DNA of 64,000 nucleotides, from assembly GCA_018401615.1 (NCBI GenBank), contig JAGYKN010000009.1:136-64135 (forward strand), in the 5' to 3' direction. The notes beneath the pieces are model-generated. The model saw nothing but the letters and a program-made list of their open reading frames with translations, made no database searches and had not been told where the DNA came from. A program made the position numbers and the translations under genes. Within the stretch, counting starts at the first letter, position 1, and every line of letters starts with the position of its first letter. Positions 18,012 through 33,790 of the stretch are shown here, one piece after another. This DNA is from Burkholderiaceae bacterium (GTDB taxonomy: Bacteria > Pseudomonadota > Gammaproteobacteria > Burkholderiales > Burkholderiaceae_A).

Positions 18012-18929
18012 CTATTCGCCCACACTTGTTGGGCCAATGCGGTGATCAAATAACCACTGCTTGAACGCCAGTGCTGCCGGAGACAAGCGCTTGCCGCTGG
18101 GATAGACCAGTTGCCAGCGGCGGATCAACGGAAATCCCACGACATCGAGTTTAACCAGCTCACCCAGGGCCAATTCAGAGACCACCGTGGTGGCGGACAG
18201 GACAGCCAGTCCAAGGCCACCGGCGACAGTCTGCTTAATGGCCTCGTTGCTGCTGACCTCAAGACGATTAATGGGACTAAAACCCTCCTGGGCAAAAAAC
18301 TTCTCGGTGGTCAGGCGCGTGCCAGAGCCAGGCTCACGCAGAATAAAGGGCTCATGACGCAACCGCTTGGCTGCAATGCGGCGCTGACCCACCAGGGGGT
18401 GGGAGGGCGGCGCAACCAAGACCAGCTGATTGTCAGCAAAGTGTTCGCTGATCACATCCAGATTGTCCGGCGGCTGTCCCATGATGTAGAGATCGTCTTG
18501 ATTGGCCATGAGACGCTGCAGGATGCTCTCGCGATTGACCACCACCATCGCAACCTCGATGCCCGGATGGGCCGCGCAGAATCCACCCAGCAGTTTTGGA
18601 ACGGTGTATTTCACCGTGGTGAGGATGGCAAGCCGAAGGGTGCCCCGCTCCATTCCCTGAAGGGCCGCTAGGTCCTCACTAAGAAGGTCCATGCGCTGGG
18701 AGATGTCATGGCAGGCTTCGGCCAGTGTTCGACCAGCCGCCGTGAGAAAGATCTTCTTGCCCAGCTGCTCGAACAGGGGCTGGCCAATGTTTTCAGCCAA
18801 CTGCTTGACCTGCAGCGACAGGGTGGGGGGTGCGAGATGCAACGCCTCTGCCGCCCGAGCAAAACTGTTGTGCTCAGCCACGGCCTGAAAGATGCGCAAT
18901 TGATGGAGCGTGGTGTGTCGAAGCTTCAT
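18012..18929 (-). CDS. cbbR: LysR-type regulator CbbR
   Basis: TLHQLRIF...SFARAAEALHL HTH, REPGSGTR, SNEAIKQ, all CbbR/CmpR-like; sits at the end of the cbb locus. Confidence 0.85.
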   Translation of the reverse strand: MKLRHTTLHQLRIFQAVAEHNSFARAAEALHLAPPTLSLQVKQLAENIGQPLFEQLGKKIFLTAAGRTLAEACHDISQRMDLLSEDLAALQGMERGTLRLAILTTVKYTVPKLLGGFCAAHPGIEVAMVVVNRESILQRLMANQDDLYIMGQPPDNLDVISEHFADNQLVLVAPPSHPLVGQRRIAAKRLRHEPFILREPGSGTRLTTEKFFAQEGFSPINRLEVSSNEAIKQTVAGGLGLAVLSATTVVSELALGELVKLDVVGFPLIRRWQLVYPSGKRLSPAALAFKQWLFDHRIGPTSVGE

Positions 18930-18980: not shown

Positions 18981-21215
18981 TCATTCGGCTGTGGACAGGG
19001 CCTCAGCCAGCTTGGCCAGTAACTGCGCGTGATGCTCGTCTTCAAGCTCGCGGCTCGGTGAGAAGGCCAGCAACACGCCGTGCCTGATCTCAATGTAGAG
19101 CGGGCCAGCCTGTCTGAGGGTCTCAAATATATGAGGCGGAACCTTAGGAACAGGACTGTCAGCTGGAACATAGAGCCGATAGCCGGGTGCCTCCTCGAGG
19201 TGAGCGCTCTCATTCAGGTTGACCAGATAGCGCTCTAGATAGTGACCTGGCGTGAGAACAAAATCAGGTAGCGTGACGCCGGCAGGCAACTCATGGATGA
19301 CGAGCGTGTGGCGGTGTGGCATGTGGTAATCGGGTGCCGACGTGTGGCTGTAATCGAACAATCGAATCTGCCCACCTGCCCAGGAGCCGTGAATCAGATT
19401 GCTCAGTTCACGGTGATCGCCGCGACGTAGGTAGACAAAATCATGCCGGTTGATGCTGGCGGCAACCTCAGGAGAGAACCCAAGCCCGAGGCGCTGAGCC
19501 AGGGAGGCCATCTGCTGCGCACGTCCGTCGCGTTCGGCAATCTGATGGGCAATGCGTGATTCCTGCATTCGGGCAGCCAGAGGGTGCGCAGAAAATGCAT
19601 AGAAGTGTTCCATGCCCTCTACGTTAAAAGCCCTGCCATGAGATGCTGCCTCTTCTTCGAAATGCTGCAAGAACTCAGCCGATGTGTGGTCGACAATCCG
19701 TGCAGACTCAGTAAACCGCAGGAGCACACCGTCTGACTCGGGCAATCGTTCCAAGGATTTTTGCAACGGCAGGAGATTAAAACCCACCAAGGACCCTAGG
19801 GTGAAGACATGGGTTGTGCGACCGTCATCGTCTTGTGATCGATGTTTAATGACTGGGTTACGAAATAGGCTTGCAAAGTTACCAGCCAATAGGCGAAAGG
19901 ATGATTGTGGGTCTATTCGCCCGTTTAGCACATACCGCACAGACGGCATGAGCAGATAGATGAGTAGGGCCAGCTCAATGGCCACACCAATGAACATGCC
20001 CCACAACAAGTCGGTGAGCAGAATGGCAACCACGGTGCTGGTAAACACCAGAAAACGATCTCTGCCCACGGCCAGCATGCGAATAAACAGCGCAGGCTCG
20101 CACAGCCGCCAGCCTATGTAGATGAGAATGCCCGCAATTGCAGCCAGCGGAATGAGCTTGAGCAGTTCAGGCAGCACAACAGCGAAGACCAATAAAAACA
20201 AACCGCTGTAGAGGTTTGACCACAGGGTGTGGGCACCGGAATCGATATTGGAGCGGCTTGGAACTGCATTGGGGATGACCGTCAGGCCGCCAATCATGCC
20301 CGACGTTAAGTTACAGACCCCCATGGCACGCAGCGTTTTATTGGCATCTGATTTTCGCCGCCATGGGTCTATCTTGTCGACTGCCTTGACGCTGGCCACT
20401 GATTCAACCGCATCAATCATGGTGAAGGTAAACACCACCAGTGCCATGGTGATCCAGAGTTCCGAATTGGAGAAAAATTGTGCAAAGGCAGGCAGGTGGA
20501 TGCCGTCGACGATATTTTCAGGCATGGCAATGCGCAGGCTGGCATCAAAACCCAACACGGTGCTGCTCAGAATGCCGAATGCGGCCACAACGATGGCTGC
20601 GGGAATCCAGCGCCATAGCCCACTGGCCTTGCGACGCAACGCAAACATCAGGCCGAGGCTGATCACGCCGACTGCGGCCACCTGCCACTGGGCCGATAGA
20701 AGCTGGCTGGGCAATATAGACAGTGAGTCCAGCACGGATCCCGACGGCACTGCAGGAGCCCCCAACCAAGCCGGGATCTGACGAACAATGATCATGATGC
20801 CGATTGATGCCAGCATGGCCTCAACGACCGTTGCGGGCAGCATGGTTGCATATTGCCCTGCACGAAGACCGCTCAAGAGGAGTTGGAAGGCCCCAGTCAG
20901 CACGATGGCCACCAGCACCAGGGGGTAGCCGACGGCAAGATCACCCTGACCAAGCAGCAGCATGCCCCACAGGAGGACAGGGGCAAGTGCTGCAGCAGGC
21001 CCACTGACCGTGACGTGCGAGCCCCCCAAGAACGGAGACAATAGGCCCGCCACAATTGCGGAAATTAATCCAGCAATGGCAGGTGCGCCAGATGCCAGCG
21101 CCACACCGAGCGAAAAAGGCGTCCAGAGCAACGCAACCTGTAATCCAGCCACCAGATCATGGCGCCAGTGCTTCAGGCCAGCAAGGCCACTCGAAGGCAT
21201 AGAGGGCAGGTTCAC
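18981..21215 (-). CDS. SulP/SLC26 anion (probably bicarbonate) transporter with STAS-like domain and an extra C-terminal domain
   Basis: DLVAGL...GVALASGAP...VSGPAA, multiple TM segments, IVDHT STAS motif; GTG start overlaps the upstream stop. Confidence 0.85.
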   Translation of the reverse strand: MNLPSMPSSGLAGLKHWRHDLVAGLQVALLWTPFSLGVALASGAPAIAGLISAIVAGLLSPFLGGSHVTVSGPAAALAPVLLWGMLLLGQGDLAVGYPLVLVAIVLTGAFQLLLSGLRAGQYATMLPATVVEAMLASIGIMIIVRQIPAWLGAPAVPSGSVLDSLSILPSQLLSAQWQVAAVGVISLGLMFALRRKASGLWRWIPAAIVVAAFGILSSTVLGFDASLRIAMPENIVDGIHLPAFAQFFSNSELWITMALVVFTFTMIDAVESVASVKAVDKIDPWRRKSDANKTLRAMGVCNLTSGMIGGLTVIPNAVPSRSNIDSGAHTLWSNLYSGLFLLVFAVVLPELLKLIPLAAIAGILIYIGWRLCEPALFIRMLAVGRDRFLVFTSTVVAILLTDLLWGMFIGVAIELALLIYLLMPSVRYVLNGRIDPQSSFRLLAGNFASLFRNPVIKHRSQDDDGRTTHVFTLGSLVGFNLLPLQKSLERLPESDGVLLRFTESARIVDHTSAEFLQHFEEEAASHGRAFNVEGMEHFYAFSAHPLAARMQESRIAHQIAERDGRAQQMASLAQRLGLGFSPEVAASINRHDFVYLRRGDHRELSNLIHGSWAGGQIRLFDYSHTSAPDYHMPHRHTLVIHELPAGVTLPDFVLTPGHYLERYLVNLNESAHLEEAPGYRLYVPADSPVPKVPPHIFETLRQAGPLYIEIRHGVLLAFSPSRELEDEHHAQLLAKLAEALSTAE

Positions 21216-22036
21216 TGTGCCCACTGCCGGAGGTAATGCTCAACCACCTCAACCACCGCCTTGGATTTGATCACCAACCCAAGGTCAATCATCTCTGAAC
21301 CCATGACCAGACCGTGATTGTTTGCCGGAACCGGTAAAGACACCAGATGATTTGCCTCCTCACGAAAAAAGACGGCCGCAACAACACCCACAAATAAGAA
21401 ATGTCGACCAGCACTCTGCCCAAATCGGTGCACATCGGGCAGGTACACAAAGACGGGGCTGCCGCTTGACCCAGGGTACACGGCCGCATCAATCAGAAAC
21501 TCGGCACGGCCTTCAAAGTCTAGCGCCATGGGGGTGGCTGTGGTGCCCCGACGTAATATGGGCATGAGGTTGACCTGATCCCAGACCCCGCTGGGATAGC
21601 CCACAAACAAGACCTCTTCTAATGCATCAAGTGCGCGGGTGGCTTCTTCGTTGGGCACGAGCCTTGTGTCGATCACCTGGTAGTAGAGCTCGACGCCCTG
21701 TTGATTGGCGGCCTGCTCAAGGGGTCGCATGGGAATGATGGCCAGATCAACCGCGGGATCAGGGTGCAGATACCAGGCCTGTGGAAAGTCATCGATATTG
21801 AGTTGAAACCGCTGGCCCAGCAGGGGCCGGCCATGGCGCTTCTGGGTAAAGACCAGACCCCCCCGGCGGACACCGTCAACGAGATGTCGGTTGGTCACGA
21901 TGAAGGTGTGAGTGCCGTGCGCATTGGCATGACTGACCACGAAGGCGGTGCCCGAGCCTTCGCTGCCGTCGTCAAGAACGGTGTCGACCCGAATGGTGTT
22001 AAAGAGCAGTCGTTTGGTGGTCGAGTTGATTTCCAC
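21212..22036 (-). CDS. Trypsin-like serine protease, no signal peptide
   Basis: GSGTAF, TNRH (His), DLAI (Asp), VGYP, PGSSGSP (Ser). Confidence 0.85.
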   Translation of the reverse strand: MEINSTTKRLLFNTIRVDTVLDDGSEGSGTAFVVSHANAHGTHTFIVTNRHLVDGVRRGGLVFTQKRHGRPLLGQRFQLNIDDFPQAWYLHPDPAVDLAIIPMRPLEQAANQQGVELYYQVIDTRLVPNEEATRALDALEEVLFVGYPSGVWDQVNLMPILRRGTTATPMALDFEGRAEFLIDAAVYPGSSGSPVFVYLPDVHRFGQSAGRHFLFVGVVAAVFFREEANHLVSLPVPANNHGLVMGSEMIDLGLVIKSKAVVEVVEHYLRQWAQ

Positions 22037-22041
22037 AGGGC

Positions 22042-22671
22042 TTAGTCTTGCCGGGCATGAAGATTGAGCTGCGCAATGGCGCGATGGGCTGCATGCATTG
22101 CGGCCTCAGCCTCGGCCTCGGTGCCCATCATGGTGAGCCGCCCAAAGCTGCCGAATGCCTTGACATCCACCAGCGTGACGTTGGCCGCCTTCTCCGCCTC
22201 ATTGGCTGCAAAGACAATGTATCCAGCAGGCTCTGTCTCGAGGATGAACATGCTCTTGCCAGGCAACAACATTGAGCCTTTTCGCATCTGCCGATTGATC
22301 AGCGTGGCATGGTCTGGGGTCACCGCGCAGATGACCTCGCTCCAGGCGATTCGACACGCCATACGATCACCCACGCTTGCGCCCAACTGCTCCAAGATGA
22401 TGCGGCTTGCCTCCTGGACCTCGCTCTGATTGCGATAGTGAATGCCCATGGAGCCGAATGCGCGCTCAACCACCTGTTCACCCATGCGAACGTTGGTTCG
22501 TTTGAGCGCAATATCAGACAGGCGGTGGACGGCCATGCCGGGTGAGACCTCGATCCAGACACAGGCGTCACCCGGGATGGGCAGGAAGCCCTGCGACGAC
22601 GTCGCCAGATACGAGGCCAACTGCGGCTGCAGAGAATCAATGAAGGAGAAGGTTCGTAGGCTAATGTCCAT
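22042..22671 (-). CDS. csoS1D: Tandem-BMC carboxysome shell protein CsoS1D
   Basis: [43 protein letters not shown]. Confidence 0.9.
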
Positions 22672-22679
22672 GGCTCATC

Positions 22680-25034
22680 TCACCGGGTCAGGCCCATGTA
22701 GAGCATGGGGAGCTTTTCGGGAAGACGTTCAACCTGATCGAGCACCGTAAAGTTCTTTGCGCCAAAGATACGCGAGACATATTGGTCTGCGTGTGGGTCC
22801 AGGCTGAGTGCATAGACCGTGATGCCATCACGCGTGAGCCCCTCAACGGCGCGTCTGGCATCAAAGCGCAGGTAATGAGGATCGCGGACATCGTTGTCAG
22901 CTGGCTCGCCATCTGTGATGACAAACATTATTTTTTTACGCTCTGGCCGCAGCTTAAAGGCTGACCCCGCGTGGCGCAGGGCCGCACCCATGCGTGTGGA
23001 AAAGGCGCCGCTCATGCCAGCGAGCCGAGCCTTGACCTGATCGTTGTAGGGCTGATCAAAATCCTTGAACCGGTAGTAATGCACGTCGTGTCTGCCGTCT
23101 GAAGAGAATCCATTGATGGCAAATGGGTCGCCAATCCGATCCAATGCACCAGACAACATGACTGTTGCTGCTCGTGATAGATCCATGATGCTGTATTCCT
23201 GACCACGGACCTTGTCATTTGACGACTCGGACATATCAAGCAAGACCATCACCGATAGATCGCGTTGATTGCGCTGATTGCGCATCATGATTCGGGTGTC
23301 GGGCTGCTGGCCCATTCGGATATCGATCATGGCCCGAACGGCTGCATTGATATCGAGCTCATCGCCATCTTCGACCCGACGAATGCGCTGCATGCCCTGC
23401 GGGATCATGGACTCGATCAGAAACTTCAGACGCGAAATGACCGGCTTATTGTCCTGCACGATCTTCTCGATGTCGGCCAGATCCCCCATGGGCGGGCGAC
23501 GCTCCAGCACGGTCACCCAGCTGGGTCGATCGAGCTGAATTTGATAATCCCACTCGCTGTATTGCACGGGGTCAGCGATCGGTTCACGCCCCTCAATGGA
23601 ATTGATGCTGATGCCTTCTTGGTCGAGGATGAATTCGGTTGGCAATACCCAGATCTCGTCGGCATTGTCACCAGCAAACTCGTTATTGGTCTCGTTGATC
23701 ATCTCCATGATGTTGACTTTTCGCCGAACCTGCTTGGGGGTCCATGTTGCCTCGAGCGCCTTGTCAATGTCGTAGGCATCAGATTCCCAGATCGTGCGAT
23801 TGTCGTCACGGTATCTCGCACGCAGGCCGTCTGTTTTGGGGTTGAAATCTGGTAACGCCAACTGATCCAAGCCCTGCGATAGCGCAAGGCCAATCTTCAG
23901 ACTGATCTGATTGCTTGTGAGGTCACTCTCATCTGAGAACAACGCGACGCCGTCACGCACCCAGGGATGCAGGTCGGTGGACTGCGGGTCGAGCAAGGCT
24001 CGTGCAAGCCGGTTCAGGAGATCGCCCACCGTTACGGGTTCGTGGGCATCCGGTGATGGATGGAATGCCAGCCAGGCGGCACGCATATTTGGAAATTGGC
24101 GGCAGGCCAGGGTCTCGACGCGGGCATCTTCGATCACCTCAATGATGGCCTTCTGTGTGGTGGTGAGGGCCTGCAGTGACAAGGGCGCCTGGGTGAAGAC
24201 CAGGTGCGCAGCGCAATGGTTCACCACCGCACGATAGACCTCTGGGCCCAGGATTGGCTCCAACTCATTGGGGTTGTCGGCCTGCGGCCGATAATCGTCA
24301 TAGGCGTCTGGAATGTAGATGACATAGCGTTCGATGTAAGGCTTCAGACCATCGCGGTTTTCATAGTCACCAGAGGTTGGGCGCAGGAAGAAATCGCGGC
24401 CCCAGATTGCCCGAAGATAGATGTTGAGTCGTCTCTGGACATCAACAAAAAGCGTGCCCTTGCGCTCCTGCTGCAGCACCTGCAGAGCATCAGGGCTCTG
24501 GAGCCCAAAGTAGCGCACCTGGCCTTCAAGATCATCCTTATAGGCCTGTGCACCCCACATCACCCACCGACGTAGGCCCCCGAGTGTGAGCTGAGAGAGC
24601 AGTGGTTCGATATTTTCCAACATGGGTCGCAGGCCCCGTGGCGCCTGTGTCAGCACGAGCGAGAGCACATTTAGAAAACGGCGAAACAGCTCCTCATCGG
24701 CCAGGCGATCTGCAGCCTTGGGTGCCGCGCTGACGATGAGGGTGAGCATCGAGCCTGATGCCTTAGAGGCCATGCCCAGGATGAAATTCACCACCTCTGG
24801 CAGGACATCTTCCCCGATTGCATTTGCAACGGCGGGCATGCACTCAATGTAGCTCGTCACCAGTGATTGATCTCGGCCAAGCTGATTCAGGGCAATTGCA
24901 CCCTTGATGTAGTTATCCATTCCCCTAGACGAGAAGGCACGAGAGGCCTCTGTCCAGCCAGCGGCAAGCGTGGCCTGGGCCTCGCTCGGTAGGTCGGTCA
25001 GCAGCTCTTGGTAATCGTCGAGATAAATTGCCAT
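22680..25034 (-). CDS. cbbO: Rubisco activase adaptor CbbO (VWA domain)
   Basis: LTLGGLRRW, YSEWDYQ, MIDAS DMSES, STRMGAALRHAG, TDGEP. Confidence 0.93.
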   Translation of the reverse strand: MAIYLDDYQELLTDLPSEAQATLAAGWTEASRAFSSRGMDNYIKGAIALNQLGRDQSLVTSYIECMPAVANAIGEDVLPEVVNFILGMASKASGSMLTLIVSAAPKAADRLADEELFRRFLNVLSLVLTQAPRGLRPMLENIEPLLSQLTLGGLRRWVMWGAQAYKDDLEGQVRYFGLQSPDALQVLQQERKGTLFVDVQRRLNIYLRAIWGRDFFLRPTSGDYENRDGLKPYIERYVIYIPDAYDDYRPQADNPNELEPILGPEVYRAVVNHCAAHLVFTQAPLSLQALTTTQKAIIEVIEDARVETLACRQFPNMRAAWLAFHPSPDAHEPVTVGDLLNRLARALLDPQSTDLHPWVRDGVALFSDESDLTSNQISLKIGLALSQGLDQLALPDFNPKTDGLRARYRDDNRTIWESDAYDIDKALEATWTPKQVRRKVNIMEMINETNNEFAGDNADEIWVLPTEFILDQEGISINSIEGREPIADPVQYSEWDYQIQLDRPSWVTVLERRPPMGDLADIEKIVQDNKPVISRLKFLIESMIPQGMQRIRRVEDGDELDINAAVRAMIDIRMGQQPDTRIMMRNQRNQRDLSVMVLLDMSESSNDKVRGQEYSIMDLSRAATVMLSGALDRIGDPFAINGFSSDGRHDVHYYRFKDFDQPYNDQVKARLAGMSGAFSTRMGAALRHAGSAFKLRPERKKIMFVITDGEPADNDVRDPHYLRFDARRAVEGLTRDGITVYALSLDPHADQYVSRIFGAKNFTVLDQVERLPEKLPMLYMGLTR

Positions 25035-25092
25035 GGTCGATCGGTGTGTTGTCACCAGGCCAAGCCGCCTGGAAGGCCAAGCCTTCTATGTC

Positions 25093-26167: not shown

Positions 26168-26419
26168 TCAGTCGGGCCAGATGCGATCGGGAAATGCAAA
26201 GCCACCCCCACCAGATGCTTGGGCTGCGGAAGGTTGCATGGCCTTTGCCTTCGAACCAGCAGCCTTGGGTGTCGTCTCTGAGGCCACGGGGCGTGACGCA
26301 GCATCTCTGCCCTGCGGCTTGGCGGCGTTCGGCTTGGCGGCGGTCGGTGTGGCCGCGGCTGGTGTGGCGAGCTTAGATTGCCGAACACTTGCCGAGAGTT
26401 TGTCTTTTATGTTGGTCAT
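26168..26419 (-). CDS. mcdB: Carboxysome positioning protein McdB (alpha type)
   Basis: Small and disordered, basic N-terminal helix, C-terminal RIWPD; directly after the ParA-like gene. Confidence 0.85.
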   Translation of the reverse strand: MTNIKDKLSASVRQSKLATPAAATPTAAKPNAAKPQGRDAASRPVASETTPKAAGSKAKAMQPSAAQASGGGGFAFPDRIWPD

Positions 26420-27051
26420 TTTCCAAAGGCCTCCTGAATGATGGCGTTGATGTCTGCGGCCGCCGGTGCCCCCCGCCTGCCCATCTGAAAGACCGACACG
26501 CCATCTAAGGCGGCGGTTCGAAATGCGGCCCGTCGCCGAATCGTTGAGGCAAGCAGGGGCAGTCCACAGTCTGTTAGCGCCTCATTCATGGCCGATGAGA
26601 TGGCGCTTTTCGGTTCAAGCTGATTGAGCACCAAAAATGCACGGAGGTTTGGCCGCAACTTTCGGGCCTCTTCGATCTCTTGCAAGAGGCGCAGACTTGC
26701 CCAGAGATCGACTGGAGAAGGCAGTATTGGAATCAGGGCGATATCGCAGGCGCGCAGTGCCTGGGCGGTGGAGTTGCTCTCCAATGAGGGCGGACAATCC
26801 AAGACCACATGGTCAAAGGCCCGAAAGCTCTGGCGTATGCCCTGCGCGTCCCATCTGGATTGAATCTGCTTGACTGCCACAGGAAACGGGGCTGTGCCCT
26901 GACTGGCCCACTGGACGGAGGACGCCTGAGGGTCAAGATCGATGACCACGGTTGGTCCATGCTGCGCCAGACCTGCGGCCAGGTTCATTGAGAGCGTTGT
27001 TTTCCCCGCCCCACCCTTTTGATTGATCACCGCTGTGAAGCAGGCGGGCAT
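26416..27051 (-). CDS. mcdA: ParA/MinD-family ATPase McdA
   Basis: NQKGGAGKTT, DLDPQ, DCPP; carboxysome context. Confidence 0.87.
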   Translation of the reverse strand: MPACFTAVINQKGGAGKTTLSMNLAAGLAQHGPTVVIDLDPQASSVQWASQGTAPFPVAVKQIQSRWDAQGIRQSFRAFDHVVLDCPPSLESNSTAQALRACDIALIPILPSPVDLWASLRLLQEIEEARKLRPNLRAFLVLNQLEPKSAISSAMNEALTDCGLPLLASTIRRRAAFRTAALDGVSVFQMGRRGAPAAADINAIIQEAFGK

Positions 27052-27052
27052 G

Positions 27053-27313
27053 CTAAGACTCCGCGGGGCTGTAGAGCGCACTGATGCGCAGGGCAAGGGA
27101 TGTGTCGGCCTGCCCAGCTGTGTCGGGATCCAGCGTGATATTGATGTAGTTGCTTCCAAAATTAATATTCTGTGGGTGCACCCCATGGGCCTCCGTGAGC
27201 GCGGCAAGCGCATCTAGAAAGTCACGGGTCTGACTGTAGCCGTCGAACCTGAACCGCCGAAAGAGCGTTGGCTCGCGACCCCTTGATTCCCATCCCTGGG
27301 GAATCTCAGCCAC
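27053..27313 (-). CDS. Pterin dehydratase-like Rubisco assembly factor (acRAF)
   Basis: LFRRFRFDGYSQTRDFLD, HPQNINFG; typical cso-locus gene. Confidence 0.82.
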   Translation of the reverse strand: MAEIPQGWESRGREPTLFRRFRFDGYSQTRDFLDALAALTEAHGVHPQNINFGSNYINITLDPDTAGQADTSLALRISALYSPAES

Positions 27314-27743
27314 TGCGGGACTTTCCTTGAATCACTGCATCAAGTTGGACCAGGTGCTGCTTTTCCTCGTCCAGGATGGAGGCCATTAGACTGGCTGTCT
27401 CGGTGTCACGGACCCGGTTGGCGTGCAAGAGGGCCTCTTTATAGATGCGAATCGCCTCGAGTTCCAGACCACGATTTGCCAATAAAAGCTCGTCTGCGTT
27501 TCGTCCCAGCCGGGCCACCGACAACGGCTGCGCTGCTGGTGAAACACCCATTAAGATCAGCCGCTCCATGAGTAACTCGGCATGCGCCAGTTCCTCTGTC
27601 GCCTCATGTCGAAGCCCCTTCGATAAGGCTTCATCTCCCCAGCGTCTGGCCAGCACACTCTGCGCCAAGAGCTGCTGCACAGCAGAGAGCTCGTGAGCCA
27701 ATGCCCGATTGAGCCAGCCAAGGGTGCGCGGGTCAGCACTCAT
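27306..27743 (-). CDS. Bacterioferritin-like protein of cso loci
   Basis: LNRALAHELSAVQQ, EELAHA, DEEKQH ferritin-like motifs. Confidence 0.82.
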   Translation of the reverse strand: MSADPRTLGWLNRALAHELSAVQQLLAQSVLARRWGDEALSKGLRHEATEELAHAELLMERLILMGVSPAAQPLSVARLGRNADELLLANRGLELEAIRIYKEALLHANRVRDTETASLMASILDEEKQHLVQLDAVIQGKSRSG

Positions 27744-27777: not shown

Positions 27778-28116
27778 TTAACTGCGGGCCATGGTGATTT
27801 CACCATCTCGGCCACCACCGAGTGACTCAGGTGACGACGGTAGGATGGATTCCACCTCATCGTGAACGCGGGCAATGATGTGGGCAGCAACCAGGCCGTC
27901 ACCCACACGCTCGCATGCATCAGCCCCGGCACGAACAGCTGCATTTACCGCACCCGTCTCGCCACGAACCAACACCGTCACATACCCACCACCAACAAAC
28001 TGGCGGCCCACCAAACGCACCTCTGCTGCCTTGGTCATCGCATCTGCTGCCTCAATTGCAGGCACAAGACCGCGGGTTTCAATCATGCCAAGGGCAATTC
28101 CTCTGTTGTCAGCCAT
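27778..28116 (-). CDS. csoS1: Carboxysome major shell hexamer CsoS1
   Basis: [28 protein letters not shown]...[23 protein letters not shown]; AAGGAG RBS. Confidence 0.96.
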
Positions 28117-28192
28117 TTACCGCTCCTTTGTTAAAAAAATAAAAAAGTCATGCTCTGCTGCCTTGATGCGTCCGGGGCCCACATCAACCCCA

Positions 28193-28304
28193 CCTGCTGC
28201 CTGCCCAAAACCTGCCTGCCCACCGAATGCCTGCTGCCTGCCCAAAACCTGCATGCCCACCGATGACCTGCTACATTCCTGCCCAATTCCTGCCCACTAC
28301 CTGC
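28193..28304. repeat. Two 37-bp tandem repeats plus a CCTGC-rich tail in the csoS4B-csoS1 spacer
   Basis: cctgctgcctgcccaaaacctgc(c/a)tgcccaccga at 28193 and 28230; further cctgc units up to 28304. Confidence 0.8.
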
Positions 28305-28347
28305 AAATGCACCGTCGTCTGCTTCTTTGCGCGCCTCAACTCCCTCG

Positions 28348-28596
28348 CTATGGTCGATCCCAGTGGTCAATGATTCCGCAGATGGTGAGGTCGGTCACAA
28401 CCAATGGATTCGACATGGCCATGCGGGCTGCTGTGCCGGTCGTTGTGAAGACCCATTTGCCAACTGGCACACCCACTGGATCGGTTGCCACTGACAGGGC
28501 ACCCTGCTCGTTCTCCACAACACGCAGCGGAGCAGCTTGGAGCCCCGGCACACGACGGGTGCAGACCAGATCATCCATGACACGCATGATTTCCAT
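28348..28596 (-). CDS. csoS4B: Carboxysome vertex pentamer CsoS4B
   Basis: LVCTRRV, VATDPVG, GTAAR, TDLTICGIIDHW. Confidence 0.9.
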   Translation of the reverse strand: MEIMRVMDDLVCTRRVPGLQAAPLRVVENEQGALSVATDPVGVPVGKWVFTTTGTAARMAMSNPLVVTDLTICGIIDHWDRP

Positions 28597-28853
28597 TACG
28601 TCTGGTCTGCCTGCCAGTGATCGATGATTCCCACAATGGTTAAATCTGACGGAAACTCTCTGCTGCCCGCAGCATCTCGTGCGGCCGAGGAACCCACGCA
28701 GATCACCCAGTCCCCTGGGATGCAGCCCACCGCGTCGACCGCCACACTGCGAGGGCCGTCGGCCTTCTCCTGCACCACCAACAGGGGGCGGTGCCCAAAT
28801 TCGCGCAATCGATTGGTCGAGACCAGTGTTTTTTCAACTCTCATAATCTTCAT
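28596..28853 (-). CDS. csoS4A: Carboxysome vertex pentamer CsoS4A
   Basis: MKIMRVEKTLVSTNR, VAVDAVGCIPGDWVICVGSSAAR, DLTIVGIIDHW. Confidence 0.93.
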   Translation of the reverse strand: MKIMRVEKTLVSTNRLREFGHRPLLVVQEKADGPRSVAVDAVGCIPGDWVICVGSSAARDAAGSREFPSDLTIVGIIDHWQADQT

Positions 28854-28880
28854 GTCGTTTTACCTTGTCATCTGGTCGCG

Positions 28881-30368
28881 TTAATGCCAAATCACCGGGG
28901 CAGCGTCATCGATCAGGGTGCAGCGTTCGCTTGCGTGTATGTCGCTCACGGCCATCTGGCAGTGCAACAGCCCCTGGGTGTGGAGTGCGGCGTAGCGAGA
29001 CTCAATGGCAGTCTTGACGCGAAGGCAACGATTGACGGCCCGCTCGCGTGCACCGGGAACCCGTGCTGAGAAATGAAAATGCACCAGAAGTGGAATGGCC
29101 AACCCACGGCTAATATTTAGGCCCTTGAAAATATTGATGCCGACATCCATGTCAGCAGTGCCCTCTTCAACGGTGTCAAGGTGAGCGAAGTAAAACTTGT
29201 TGCGCAGCTGGACCTCGCTCAGTGCCTCGCCAACACAGATGAATCGCTCCTTGTGGCCAATGTCGGTGTATCGGCCCTCGTGGTGTTGGATCACATATTG
29301 AATCTGCGAGAGATTGGCCTGCAGCAGTCGTTCAACGAGCCGCCGCATGCCGGGCCGAAGGCCTGAGCCCCCATCGGCCATGTCGACTGCACGCGAGATG
29401 GCGGCAGAGGCGGCCTGCTCATCTAGGCTGAGTGTGTCGCGAAAGACCTGAGCGCTCTCAACATATCGGCCAGGGCAGTTCATTGAATCGCCATTCGGGA
29501 TGTGCACACGGATGGCATCGGTGTCGGTGTCCATGCCAATCAGCAGTGTCTCGGGTGCTGCCCCACTGCCAAAGGTGTTGTCAATTGCAGCCCGCAATTC
29601 ATCTAGCTTTGCAGCAGCTGCCATGGTGGCTTTGTCGTCTTGAGAGCCGTGGGCTGCACAGCCCTGGTGGCTGGGATTGGACGTGCTGAAGTGGTAGACC
29701 GCTATCTTCAAATAGTTGCCGTCCTCGCCGCCGGATATGGTGCCATTGAGCCGTTCGAGTTCCCGGCGTGTCCAGTCGGCAACGTCGGCCTCAACATCAA
29801 AGAGCGCTCCCGCATAGGCCTTCACAGAGATGGCCTCAGACGGGGCGATCCGCAATACAAATGGGACGAGCCCCTGCAGGCGGCCGTCTGCGCAGGGGCT
29901 GATGTCGACTGTGTGATAGCCACAAGATTGAAGGAATTGGCGGTCGATGATCATCCGAGCAAGCCAGGGTGCCTGGTCCATTGCTGCACATTCAACACAG
30001 GTCTTGAAGGTTCGAAAAATACAAAATGAATGAAGTGCCCGCATGTCGAGTCCGACGACCCATGCGTCTTGGAGGAGCTTCTCAGGCAGCCTGTAGCCCA
30101 GCCGAGTCTGGGAGAGCTGCTGGGCTCGGGCAACAAAGGCAGTCTCGTGCTGCATGGTCGAGACCGCCATGAGCACGTCTGTAATGGGCGCAAAACGATT
30201 GCGGATCTGGCATTCGTAGTCAAAGAGCTGGTGATTGAGTTCCTGATCCACCAGCGAGTGCGCGCACCTCTGATTCGGGCCCAACACACAGGCTGGGTTA
30301 TCGAGGTACTGCGGTGGCTGGAGCCCCGCGGCTGCTCGCATGGCGACAAGGCGTTTGCGTGTGTTCAC
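28881..30368 (-). CDS. csoS3: Carboxysomal carbonic anhydrase CsoSCA
   Basis: PCADGRL, YHFS, GCAAHGS zinc ligands; DTDTDAIRVH. Confidence 0.94.
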   Translation of the reverse strand: MNTRKRLVAMRAAAGLQPPQYLDNPACVLGPNQRCAHSLVDQELNHQLFDYECQIRNRFAPITDVLMAVSTMQHETAFVARAQQLSQTRLGYRLPEKLLQDAWVVGLDMRALHSFCIFRTFKTCVECAAMDQAPWLARMIIDRQFLQSCGYHTVDISPCADGRLQGLVPFVLRIAPSEAISVKAYAGALFDVEADVADWTRRELERLNGTISGGEDGNYLKIAVYHFSTSNPSHQGCAAHGSQDDKATMAAAAKLDELRAAIDNTFGSGAAPETLLIGMDTDTDAIRVHIPNGDSMNCPGRYVESAQVFRDTLSLDEQAASAAISRAVDMADGGSGLRPGMRRLVERLLQANLSQIQYVIQHHEGRYTDIGHKERFICVGEALSEVQLRNKFYFAHLDTVEEGTADMDVGINIFKGLNISRGLAIPLLVHFHFSARVPGARERAVNRCLRVKTAIESRYAALHTQGLLHCQMAVSDIHASERCTLIDDAAPVIWH

Positions 30369-30380
30369 CCGGTGGTCTCT

Positions 30381-31979
30381 CTAGCCTCGTGCGCCGCCCG
30401 ACACCGTCACCGCAGCACCTTTGCTGGTGCTGCCCGAGGAACCCGTGATTCGGCTCTCAGGCGGGGCTGCACGCTCGACGTCACGAAACTGCTGGGCATT
30501 CATCACCACCCCCCGTGGCTCCCCACGTTGCGATGGATTTCGCATCAGAGATGAGGTGCCTTCGGTTCCCGTGACACGCCCAGATGACTGCCATGCGTCA
30601 CCGCTGATCTGGGTGCCAGCCTGGCTCCCCTCACCGGTGAGACGTTCGGCCGCAGTTGTGGCAGACACCTGAGAGGCGGCCTGAGATTTGGCCTGAAAGG
30701 ATGAGGGCTCGTGATGACGAAATTCGGGTGTTCCCGTGATCAATCCGCCTGCCTTGTTCACAGGCCCAGTGATGCGTTGTGTGCTGAAGTTCGTGCCCGT
30801 GATGGCGTCAGCAGAGTTGCGCTCTCTGGCCTGCATCGAGGGCGACTTGATGCTGAAGTCTGCGGGCGCAGGAGCAGCTGGCGGCGCGTCCTGGCCACCT
30901 GCCCTGGGCACAAAGCGGCTGCTGGTCTGACAATTCAATGGCCGGTTGTCAAGACCGATATAGGGCGATCCCGTGATGAGCTCGCAGGCACCGCGATCAT
31001 CTCCAGTCATGACAGAACCACCGGCACCGGGTCGATCGCCGGTGACAACTGCCGCCGCAATGACGCCTTCGCTTCGCAGGCGCGTCTGCTGGGCAGCAAG
31101 CTGCGGATCGTTGCAGAACTCCTTGTACTGCTTGCGGCCAATGTAGGGTGTTCCACTGATCGGCGCGCAACCACCGGGCTCATCGCCCGTCATCTTGTTC
31201 GATCGTCCGACATGGGTGCCGGTAATGGACTGGCCACGCCAGGTCTGGTCCTGTGCCAATGATGCTGGTGTTTTGGGGCCGCCCGAGTGCTGCCTGGCGG
31301 CGTTGACATCACCAACATTGGTGTATTGGGTTCCCGTGAGCTGACGCGAGGAACCGAATTCATCACCAGTAACGGCTGTAGAGCGCTCAACGTCGGATCG
31401 CACAGGATTCTTTTCGTCCTGCGATGGCATGACGCTGACCCTTCGGGGTGCGGCAGATGGCGCGCGGTTTTCGCGGGCCAGATCCAGGTGGGATGAGAGA
31501 AATTCTGTTCCAGTGATGGTGCGCTCAGAGCCTGCCTGGGTGCCTGTGACCTTGTGGGCCGCATTGACAACCTGGGCACCTGCGAGGGCTCTTGCGCCAG
31601 ATGGCGCCGCATGTTGTGAGGTGGATGCGGGCACCGATGCCGCCGGCGTTCGCATGCGGCCGCTGGGCTTGGCGGCTGCGGCTGGGCCTCCTGTGCGGCC
31701 CTTGAGCGCGCGCGCCGTTCGGCGTTGCATGGCAATCTGCCGACCCGATGAGGCGGATTGGGCCTGTGCGGCCTGCATGAGCGCAGCCTCTGATGCCGCC
31801 CTTGATGGCACCGGCTCTGAGGCTTCGGCCCGATACACGGGCTGTGATGCTCGCCGGGGTGCCTGACTCGACTTCACAGAGGCGGCCTTGCCATGGAGCG
31901 CCATGGCCTTTCGGCGCATGAGCGCGAGTTCTCGTCCAGACAGTGTCACTTGATCTGCGGTTGCGTTGGCTGTTGCCAT
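30381..31979 (-). CDS. csoS2: Carboxysome scaffold CsoS2 (short, 532 aa)
   Basis: Two N-repeats (SGRxxAxxRRxA), [VI]TG triplet M-repeats, C-terminal ITGSSG...VTVSGGARG. Confidence 0.93.
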   Translation of the reverse strand: MATANATADQVTLSGRELALMRRKAMALHGKAASVKSSQAPRRASQPVYRAEASEPVPSRAASEAALMQAAQAQSASSGRQIAMQRRTARALKGRTGGPAAAAKPSGRMRTPAASVPASTSQHAAPSGARALAGAQVVNAAHKVTGTQAGSERTITGTEFLSSHLDLARENRAPSAAPRRVSVMPSQDEKNPVRSDVERSTAVTGDEFGSSRQLTGTQYTNVGDVNAARQHSGGPKTPASLAQDQTWRGQSITGTHVGRSNKMTGDEPGGCAPISGTPYIGRKQYKEFCNDPQLAAQQTRLRSEGVIAAAVVTGDRPGAGGSVMTGDDRGACELITGSPYIGLDNRPLNCQTSSRFVPRAGGQDAPPAAPAPADFSIKSPSMQARERNSADAITGTNFSTQRITGPVNKAGGLITGTPEFRHHEPSSFQAKSQAASQVSATTAAERLTGEGSQAGTQISGDAWQSSGRVTGTEGTSSLMRNPSQRGEPRGVVMNAQQFRDVERAAPPESRITGSSGSTSKGAAVTVSGGARG

Positions 31980-32008: not shown

Positions 32009-32335
32009 TTAGCGATAGACCACAAAGGCCATTCCTTGGCTCTGTGAGTAGTTGTCGTAGGCGAGGTAGCGCACCAGGTGAGATGGGAACTCACGATGGC
32101 AGGCATCGAGTTCCGCCATGACGGCATCAACCGACTCTTCGCCAAAAAGCGGCAGCTTCCACATGAACCAGAAGTTGCTGGTTGCTGCTGTGCCCTTTGC
32201 CGTGTGTTCCACGGCTGGATTCCAGCCCTGCGCAATTGAGTAGGCGATCTGGCGACGGACCTGTTCGATCGTCATGGGTGGCAGATAAGAGAAGGTCTCA
32301 AACTTCTGGGACGACTTGTAGGCTTGAACGGCCAT
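32009..32335 (-). CDS. cbbS: Rubisco small subunit (form IA, carboxysomal)
   Basis: [35 protein letters not shown]. Confidence 0.97.
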
Positions 32336-32368
32336 GTCAGTTTCCTTTCAAAGAGATGGTTAGATGGA

Positions 32369-33790
32369 TCACTTGTTTGAGAGGTCGAGTTTGTCGACCG
32401 TGTCGAATTCAAACTTAATCTCTTTCCAGACCTCCATGGCAATCTTGAGCTCAGGACTGTGTGCAGCAGCGGCCGTTAGGATTTCACGGCTCTCTCTCTC
32501 GAGCTGGCGTCCCTCGTTGCGAGCCTGGACGCAGGCCTCCAAGGCCACCCGGTTCGCATGGGCGCCCGCAGCATTTCCCCATGGGTGACCAAGGGTTCCG
32601 CCGCCAAACTGCAGCACGGAATCGTCGCCAAAGATGTTGACCAGTGCAGGCATGTGCCAGACGTGAATGCCGCCCGAGGCCACCGCAAAGACACCAGGCA
32701 TGGAGCCCCAGTCTTGATCAAAGAAGATGCCGCGTGACCGATCTTCGGGAATGAAGGACTCGCGAAGCAGATCGATCCACCCCAGTGTTGAGGCACGGTC
32801 GCCCTCGAGTTTTCCAACCACGGTTCCCGTGTGGAGGTGATCGCCGCCTGAGAGGCGAAGAATCTTGGCAAGGACACGGAAGTGGATACCGTGGTGCGGA
32901 TTTCTGTCGATCACTGCGTGCATGGCACGGTGGATGTGCAGCAGCATGCCGTTGTCACGACACCAATTGGCCAGGCCCGTGTTGGCACAGAAGCCGCCTG
33001 TGATGTAGTCATGCATGATGATTGGCGCGCCGATTTCCTTGGCATACTCGGCCCGCTTGTACATCTCTTCGGGCGTTGCAGCGGTCACGTTCAGGTAGTG
33101 GCCCTTGCGCTCGCCAGTCTCTTGCTCGGCCTGCAATGTGGCCTCTTGAACGAAATCAAAACGTTGACGCCAGCGCATGAACGGTTGGCTATTGATGTTT
33201 TCGTCGTCTTTGGTGAAATCAAGGCCACCGCGCAGGCACTCATAGACCGCGCGGCCATAATTCTTACCGGACAGGCCCAGCTTGGGCTTGATGGTGCAGC
33301 CCAGGAGCGGACGGCCGTATTTGTTCATGAGGTCGCGCTCAACCTGAATGCCGTGGGGTGGACCACCGCAGGTCTTGACGTACGCAATTGGGAAGCGCAC
33401 GTCTTCTAGCCGAAGGGCGCGAACGGCCTTAAAGCCAAATACATTGCCCACCAATGAGGTGAACACATTGACCACTGAGCCCTCTTCGAAGAGGTCGATC
33501 GGATACGCCACAAAGGCATAAAAGCAGCTCTCGTCGCCGGGCACGTCTTCAATCCGATAGGCGCGGCCCTTGTAATAGTCCATGTCGGTCAACAGGTCAG
33601 TCCAGACCGTGGTCCATGTGCCGGTTGAGGACTCTGCAGCAACAGCAGCGGCGGCCTCTTCGTGATCCACCCCAGATTGGGGGGTGATCTTAAAGACCGC
33701 CAAAATATCGGTGTCCAGCGGGGTGTAGTCGGGCATCCAGTAGGTCTGGCGATAGTCCTTTACACCGGCGTTATACGTTTTTGTGGCCAT
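32369..33790 (-). CDS. cbbL: Rubisco large subunit form IA
   Basis: [37 protein letters not shown]. Confidence 0.99.

Follow-up and report, generated by a model that had tools for sequence, protein, structure and literature searches.

The window analysed here, a 64,000-nt stretch of contig JAGYKN010000009.1 from a Burkholderiaceae bacterium, carries in its alpha-carboxysome (cso) cluster a gene for a trypsin-fold serine protease-like protein (Table 1). Close relatives of this protein are confined almost entirely to genomes that encode CsoSCA, and among these to a single CsoSCA clade. The lineage that holds the gene spans the Alpha-, Beta- and Gammaproteobacteria and includes Nitrobacter, Nitrosomonas eutropha and Thiomonas, as well as freshwater Burkholderiales, Thioalkalivibrio and many Thiobacillus. 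On balance the sequence comparisons and a fold model favour, with some reserve, a cytosolic protease that is accessory to the CO2-concentrating regulon of this lineage and not essential, and that would turn over or trim the regulon's proteins.

Association with one CsoSCA clade

Five draws of genomes, which overlap each other and the 80-locus set described below in part, were searched for the protease and for CsoSCA. Fisher tests on the co-occurrence are descriptive only, since kin are not independent. Within the window's own genus (30 genomes) the two proteins were found in the same five. In its order (351 genomes) CsoSCA was found in 31; the protease was present in all five whose CsoSCA was at least 55% identical to that of the window, in none of the 26 others and in none of the 320 genomes without CsoSCA. 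Among 400 scored genomes drawn from the whole class, 71 had CsoSCA and four of these, the window's included, had the protease, compared with 0 of the 329 others. Seven genomes of this draw held distant protease relatives only, and one further genome was left unscored.

In the Thiobacillus family (that of genome G073; 121 genomes) CsoSCA was found in 68 genomes and fell into two score classes. The protease accompanied 30 of the 32 low-scoring CsoSCA proteins, none of the 36 high-scoring ones, and was found in two of the 53 genomes without CsoSCA. Two low-scoring genomes lacked the protease: in G187 the CsoSCA gene is truncated and belongs to the other type, and in G106 it lies on a 6.4-kb contig. 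The same division was seen in the order of a Thioalkalivibrio (G085), with the protease in 7/7 low-scoring, 0/30 high-scoring and 0/4 CsoSCA-less genomes. Starting from the protease, a genome-wide search was made for 50 of the 80 loci, chosen mainly where no csoSCA was visible, and CsoSCA was found in 45 of the 50 genomes. Nine genomes (G069, G081, G087, G089, G095, G594, G595, G600 and G601) had two CsoSCA matches each, and G069 also had two copies of the protease.

A quick IQ-TREE phylogeny of 80 CsoSCA proteins, with one truncated row left out, placed the 26 protease-labelled rows together with G106 on one branch (SH-aLRT 100), so that 26 of its 27 rows have the protease. One such branch points to a single gain of the protease, which has been kept down to about 51% CsoSCA identity. 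The Thiobacillaceae hold two carboxysome types. In the loci L106-L118 and L121-L125, from Thiobacillus-type genomes of this lineage, cbbL-cbbS stands directly before csoS2 in 17 of 18, with one cut, in contrast to the split arrangement that PMC9164163 suggested might be common to all Thiobacillaceae.

The original prediction had proposed a dedicated factor for carboxysome maturation or turnover. That idea holds in part: close linkage to cso genes recurs throughout the close clade, but the gene is not general, being present in only four of the 71 CsoSCA genomes of the class-wide draw. With five of 31 in the window's order, and a conservation value of 0.2 in Dataset S1 of Axen et al. 2014, a general or core component of alpha-carboxysomes is rejected.

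Gene neighbourhoods of close relatives

Neighbourhoods were read in the best 80 of 161 confirmed relatives from GTDB species genomes, with neighbours called by tblastn using proteins of the window and of neighbouring loci. A cso gene or a clade-type cbbO or cbbL was present in 56 of the 80 loci, and a core cso gene in 53. Where the full 9.5-kb flanks were available, a cso or cbb marker was seen in 27 of 30. An SbtA- or SulP-type match lay within 3 kb of the protease in 77/80, weak tblastn matches being counted. The gene directly upstream was SulP-STAS in 34 loci, csoS1D in 15, cbbO in 12, PII in 7 and other or none in 12; directly downstream it was an unannotated gene, here called orfX, in 64 loci and sbtA in 14. 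The survey of cso loci suggested with the prediction thus found linkage to be common, not rare, within the close clade.

In the window csoS1D terminates at 22042, and 5 nt separate its stop from the GTG of the protease gene. Such short spacing, pointed out in the original prediction, is common: of the 30 loci with csoS1D or cbbO no more than 400 nt upstream, 28 have a gap of -1 to 17 nt and two have a longer one (128 or 157 nt). In Nitrobacter hamburgensis it is again 5 nt. The other end of the gene is less regular. The protease stop does overlap a GTG at 21215 (GTGA), as had been described, but sulP has two further in-frame starts (GTG 21224 and ATG 21200), so the overlap is one option among three. 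Nor is the junction with sulP a conserved one, since orfX follows the protease in 64 of the 80 loci.

The linkage has nevertheless been kept through changes of gene order and of transporter type. In some Thiobacillus loci the protease gene lies on the far side of cbbR and is still linked; in L070, L072, L076 and L084 the order is sulP-protease-sbtA-PII, with cbbR between these genes and cbbL. The transporter of the locus may be SbtAB, SulP or, in G513 and in N. hamburgensis, DAB. The recurring neighbours of the close clade are cso, cbb and transporter genes rather than defence systems, as judged without a PADLOC scan of the neighbours.

Relatives and the wider family

In a search space of 5.8 billion proteins there were 1,328 matches at E <= 0.001, of which the best 120 were 76-99% identical to the window protein and nearly all about 274 residues long. 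Representatives at 50% identity, 813 of which scored E <= 1e-30, showed a gap: there were two full-length proteins at 63% and a few partial ones at 65-81%, and then full-length proteins at 45% or below. The close clade is taken here as proteins of at least 63% identity. In a FastTree phylogeny of 161 rows, a branch with support 100 separated the 30 close sequences from 131 wider relatives. The end branch of the window protein was 0.09 against a tree median of 0.82, indicating that the close clade evolves slowly; within one and the same set of loci the median identity to the window was 79% for the protease, 67% for CsoSCA and 74% for CbbO.

The window protein is a full-length match to the PADLOC profile PDC-S45 (E = 7e-88, 292 bits; residues 1-270 aligned with positions 11-285 of the 293-position model), and the wider relatives match it at E 1e-81 to 1e-98. 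It shares with PDC-S45 the form of a stand-alone trypsin-like protein of about 275 residues; it differs in belonging to a slow-evolving sub-branch fixed in carboxysome clusters, whereas the wider members inspected occur in unrelated contexts. Nine distant relatives (30-43% identity) were inspected and had no common neighbours, and no cso genes were found among the open reading frames (ORFs) scanned around them. Two of these, G309 and G161, adjoin transposase, resolvase or integrase genes. Among 16 plasmid matches 15 were distant; the close one, on N. hamburgensis X14 plasmid 1, is 68% identical and belongs to a complete cso cluster, with the DAB transporter at its other end. No match at E 1e-8 was found in 50,697 phage records, and one distant relative lies in a Sinorhizobium prophage (PMC12429752). 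With the wider family standing alone in varied and often mobile contexts, a single recruitment from these scattered stand-alone proteases into a CO2-concentrating locus is likely.

Properties of the protein

ORF reading of the window gives a GTG start and a product of 274 residues; the start position is common to the homologs in the alignment, and no Shine-Dalgarno motif is visible ahead of it. Trypsin_2 was the sole Pfam family matched (E = 2e-9, above the cut-off), with no PDZ domain. The catalytic residues, His51 (TNRH), Asp97 (VDLA) and Ser191 (PGSSGSP), are in trypsin order and include the G-x-S-G motif. The triad is unchanged in 35 of 35 aligned homologs, and His51, Asp97, Gly189, Ser190 and Ser191 are invariant in all 85 close sequences taken from the loci. 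In a wider, 149-row alignment His51 and Asp97 again do not vary, and Ser191 is kept in at least 90% of the rows. A hydropathy scan, which is not a trained predictor, gave no apparent transmembrane helix or signal peptide (maximum 1.26 over 19 residues, and 1.1 over 9 residues within the first 40). The prediction was therefore right in describing an intact triad and a protein without PDZ domain and apparently free of signal peptide and membrane anchor. For 848 close pairs (more than 86% identity, dS 0.1-1.5) the ratio of nonsynonymous to synonymous substitution rates (dN/dS, NG86) had a median of 0.088 and a maximum of 0.22, and the close-clade protease is under strong purifying selection.

A first fold model, from a shallow alignment of 35 rows, had a mean predicted local distance difference test score (pLDDT) of 52 and was discarded. 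The AlphaFold2 model from the 149-row alignment reached 88.7, with one poorly predicted loop at residues 227-244. The predicted fold is the two-barrel chymotrypsin fold, and its best structural matches were the protease domains of DegS, Deg1 and Deg2 (Z 18.7-18.8, root-mean-square deviation 2.6-2.9 over 185-192 residues), the DegS domain matching the predicted model with Z 18.8 and a deviation of 2.9 over 189 residues. DegP/DegQ were among the Foldseek matches. The protein thus resembles the HtrA/Deg proteases (MEROPS S1C: DegS, DegP, DegQ and the plant Deg1/2/5), with Z scores of 17-19 and a similar DAAxxPGxSG region, and differs from them in its low identity (12-22%) and in having no PDZ domain, membrane anchor or signal peptide. 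No HtrA model of NCBIfam matched it at E 0.01, a sequence search of the PDB gave weak N-terminal matches only (E 1e-5 to 2e-4), and in the ESM Atlas just generic trypsin clusters were found.

The position that we take to be equivalent to trypsin Asp189 is occupied by Ala185 in 83 of 85 sequences, followed by Val186 ahead of PGSSG. Because alanine replaces the trypsin-type aspartate, specificity for Arg or Lys is unlikely. HtrA prefers small aliphatic P1 residues, and by analogy a similar preference would be expected here.

Fusion of the protease to CsoS1D or another domain was sought among proteins of 481-2000 residues, and none was found at E 1e-10, an empty result that is weak evidence. The 90%-identity cluster of protein P0074 mixes protease and CsoS1D proteins. 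A fused or read-through record bridging the two would have this effect, but none was found.

The CbbQ extension and orfX

Two further features mark the protease lineage. In 39 of 39 scoreable loci (four cut loci were left unscored) CbbQ is lengthened at its N terminus by about 35 residues, which carry the motif R-[TS]-Y-x-P-R. In protease-less cso loci with a readable in-cluster cbbQ (L101, L176-L178, L190, L197 and L198) the protein starts about 39-44 residues before Walker A and has no extension. Both traits arose on the same branch, so the extension counts as a candidate substrate or as co-adaptation only; a peptide for encapsulation or docking, not described before, is another possibility. 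The available text of PMC8718961 makes no mention of such an extension. The window's own CbbQ has a longer version, with about 75 extra residues.

The second feature, orfX, encodes a protein of about 100 residues (L010:10878-11180, plus strand; paralog at L041:15968-16276, plus strand) with 221 homologs. It has no Pfam, NCBIfam or PADLOC match and falls into unnamed clusters in the ESM Atlas. In protease-less genomes, too, it is encoded next to cbbO, mcdA or form II cbbM, and it may be an unrecognised Rubisco-operon factor. It was not found in the window's genome, which is 86% complete. An obligate pair of protease and orfX is unlikely, as orfX occurs without the protease and is missing both from the window genome and from 16 of the 80 loci, including one where the sequence stops at the end of the gene.

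Interpretation

An accessory protease of the CO2-concentrating system is preferred because purifying selection acts on an intact triad, the gene is confined to one lineage, and its linkage has been kept through rearrangement. We infer that it would be made together with the cso operon and be catalytically active, and that it would trim or turn over proteins of the lineage's CO2-concentrating system. It is probably dispensable for carboxysome assembly, since most carboxysome loci lack the gene. The leading candidate substrates would be disordered, lineage-specific parts, such as the RTYxPR tail of CbbQ and unassembled CsoS2, followed by the PII or STAS regulators of the neighbouring bicarbonate transporters. 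McdB and the CbbQ tail had been named as possible targets in the original prediction; of these the tail, seen in all 39 scoreable protease loci, is an interesting candidate.

Several observations weigh against this role. The association amounts to one gain among genomes that are not independent, and a co-inherited mobile island could give the same pattern. The full-length match to PDC-S45 makes a defence role possible. A transporter gene lies near the protease in more of the 80 loci (77) than does a cso or cbb marker (56, or 27 of the 30 with full flanks), and a transporter role fits equally. Finally, two protease genomes of the Thiobacillus-family draw, and five of the 50 in the locus-genome search, had no CsoSCA, these being draft genomes.

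The alternative that survives best, though we consider it improbable, is an anti-phage protease of the PDC-S45 type, carried along as a passenger of a mobile CO2-fixation island and playing no part in carbon fixation. The profile matches of the protein and its wider relatives fit such an origin, as do the distant relatives (30-45% identity), which are single, in some cases adjoin mobility genes, and include the 15 plasmid copies and the prophage copy. The cluster itself looks horizontally spread, the window protein being 85% identical to those of Hydrogenophaga-labelled loci and 69-70% to those of its congeners. Against this, the close clade is slow-evolving, belongs to one carboxysome lineage and has kept its linkage after rearrangement in three proteobacterial classes, while none of the nine distant relatives inspected has cso genes among its scanned neighbours. 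Moreover, the PDC systems are only candidates: the available part of the preprint 10.1101/2024.01.29.577857 describes 145 untested PDCs, which were selected because they lie inside BREX, DISARM or type I restriction-modification loci, and 'S45' is absent from its main text as available.

Slightly less probable again is a role in the bicarbonate-uptake module, eg processing or turnover of SulP-STAS, SbtA or the PII-like SbtB. The closeness of SbtA- or SulP-type genes in nearly all loci, the SulP-STAS gene directly upstream in 34 of them, and the several Thiobacillus loci in which sulP-protease-sbtA-PII is parted from cbbL by cbbR all speak for it. The transporters are of three unrelated types, however; N. 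hamburgensis, N. eutropha and Thiomonas intermedia have no adjacent transporter, the protease gene there following csoS1D; and SbtAB and SulP also occur in many protease-less cso loci.

The original prediction had further suggested that cleavage by the protease could yield a second CsoS2 isoform without ribosomal frameshifting. The slippery heptamer of csoS2 is reportedly the frameshift site. In-frame heptamers were sought in 78 csoS2 genes with a minimum length of 450 codons, three truncated rows having been dropped. The site C-CCA-AA[AG], with a -1-frame stop five codons on, was found in 22 of 26 protease loci, compared with 11 of 52 loci without the protease, and N. hamburgensis csoS2 also has it. 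The exceptions among the protease loci were the window, two congeners with a short CsoS2, and L167, which has the heptamer at another place. Since most protease loci keep the site, the protease does not track its loss, and replacement of frameshifting is rejected. Only the short csoS2 genes of the window and its two congeners (520-532 codons), which lack the canonical site, and the two CsoS2 forms reported for T. intermedia carboxysomes (PMC4499774), whose locus lists such a protease gene, favour a CsoS2 maturase, and we regard this as very improbable. The window's own short, site-less csoS2 may have been the origin of the idea.

Finally, MamE and MamO of the magnetosome island are likewise trypsin-fold proteins whose genes lie in the cluster for a bacterial organelle. 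These HtrA-type proteins are anchored in the membrane, the organelle being bounded by lipid, and are general to magnetosomes, where MamO is a non-catalytic binding or scaffold protein; the window protein is apparently soluble and occurs in one carboxysome lineage only. The match of the MamO protease domain to the model (Z 16.9) speaks for a non-catalytic, MamO-like scaffold, though it is no better than that of active HtrA domains. Such a scaffold is hardly credible here, as the triad is invariant in the close sequences and almost so in the wider alignment.

Beyond the accessory protease itself, one may speculate that a defence-type protease was domesticated by this carboxysome lineage to become the first dedicated carboxysome protease, recognising the RTYxPR tail of CbbQ or disordered cargo peptides and so controlling the loading of Rubisco activase or the disassembly of carboxysomes. 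We put this forward tentatively and think it unlikely in its full form.

The gene cluster of the window

The protease gene belongs to a co-oriented run of cbbL, cbbS, csoS2, csoSCA, csoS4A/B, csoS1, bfr, acRAF, mcdA/B-like genes, cbbQ, cbbO, csoS1D, protease, sulP and LysR (Table 1). From cbbL to csoS1D, and in having a transporter gene and cbbR, this is the chemoautotroph alpha-carboxysome locus (PMC4207490, PMC12918739); the protease lineage differs in adding the protease, the N-terminally extended CbbQ and usually orfX. The GC content of the protease gene (0.57; 0.65 at third codon positions) is in line with that of its neighbours, and a single copy was found in the window genome.

Table 1. 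Features of the alpha-carboxysome cluster of the window
Feature	Position	Strand	Basis or remark
Trypsin-fold serine protease-like gene, His51/Asp97/Ser191	21212..22036	-	Subject gene
csoS1D, BMC-T shell protein	22042..22671	-	Pfam BMC; named from length and position; directly upstream of protease
cbbO, VWA adaptor of Rubisco activase	22680..25055	-	Pfam scan
cbbQ, 345 aa	25093..26130	-	Lineage-specific N-terminal extension; RQIYSLRR variant of RTYxPR
Small protein, presumably mcdB-like	26168..26419	-	No Pfam match; name taken from position after ParA gene and C-terminal IWPD
mcdA-like ParA ATPase	26416..27213	-	Longest ORF; true start likely further in
acRAF / pterin-dehydratase-like	27053..27313	-	tblastn 59% to a Pterin_4a neighbour
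Bacterioferritin-like gene (bfr)	27306..27743	-	Pfam scan
csoS1 hexamer gene	27778..28116	-	Only csoS1 found in window genome
csoS4B and csoS4A pentamer genes	28348..28853	-	Pfam scan
csoSCA	28881..30368	-	Pfam scan and CsoSCA tree; in the clade that carries the protease gene
Short csoS2, 532 aa	30381..31979	-	No in-frame X-XXY-YYZ slippery heptamer
cbbS and cbbL, form I Rubisco	32009..33790	-	Pfam scan
SulP-family transporter	18981..21224	-	Directly downstream of protease; start 21224, 21215 or 21200
LysR regulator, cbbR-like	18012..18929	-	Pfam scan; at cluster end

Four RNA libraries gave contigs that reach into the gene, and in one run of a relative about 92% identical they span both the csoS1D-protease and the protease-sulP junctions. 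A control flagellar stretch was likewise covered throughout, so these contigs indicate neither transcription nor a single transcript. A scan for promoters and terminators found no excess over shuffled sequence (3 vs 5.7 and 16 vs 14.4, respectively).

The carboxysome genes at 27778-31979 form a pared-down set in a draft genome of 1.6 Mb, with a CsoS2 of 532 residues and one csoS1, and small carboxysomes would be predicted. CsoS2 is mostly 890-940 residues long in the lineage; two congeners of the window also have a short form (520-522 residues). About 330 C-terminal residues of the window's SulP have no Pfam match, STAS included; in L009-L013, homologs of 76-77% identity are found at the corresponding position. 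The cluster ends downstream with the cbbR-like gene, which has the same orientation, while most loci of the lineage have cbbR divergently upstream of cbbL; a second LysR gene (39% identity) adjoins fbp/prk on contig C3.

Relative to its congeners G011, G014, G024 and G041, the window's protease is 69-70% and its CsoSCA 51-52% identical; relative to Hydrogenophaga-labelled loci the values are up to 85% and up to 73%. These identities suggest two separate acquisitions, or a replacement, of the cluster within the genus.

Earlier records and significance

The gene is already present in a table of 2014, where it was left undiscussed. Dataset S1 of Axen et al. (PMC4207490) has entries for a gene 825-828 nt long, with PF13365 as its only family, in at least four cso loci, those of N. 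winogradskyi, N. eutropha C91, T. intermedia K12 and Thiomonas 3As, and in N. eutropha and T. intermedia it directly follows csoS1D. The T. intermedia K12 protein is YP_003641874. For N. hamburgensis (NHAM_RS22205), membership of the lineage was checked by sequence. Neither protease nor trypsin is mentioned in the main text of that paper or in PMC9164163 and PMC8217296, as far as these were available, and the accessible text of a 2026 review (PMC12918739) contains none of 'protease', 'proteoly' and 'degrad', in agreement with the earlier statement that a protease is not among the established alpha-carboxysome components. No discussion of the gene was found in the literature searched, which left out most subscription papers and bioRxiv supplements, so that an earlier mention is possible.

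Remodelling and disassembly of alpha-carboxysomes have hardly been described, and a conserved protease gene of one lineage, present in cultured organisms, offers a single-gene handle on them. Together with the distinct CsoSCA clade, the extended CbbQ and orfX, the protease gene helps to define a carboxysome subtype in nitrifiers and sulfur oxidisers, which is relevant to the choice of loci for engineering. If its ancestry in defence is true, a protein of the conflict type would have been recruited into central carbon metabolism.

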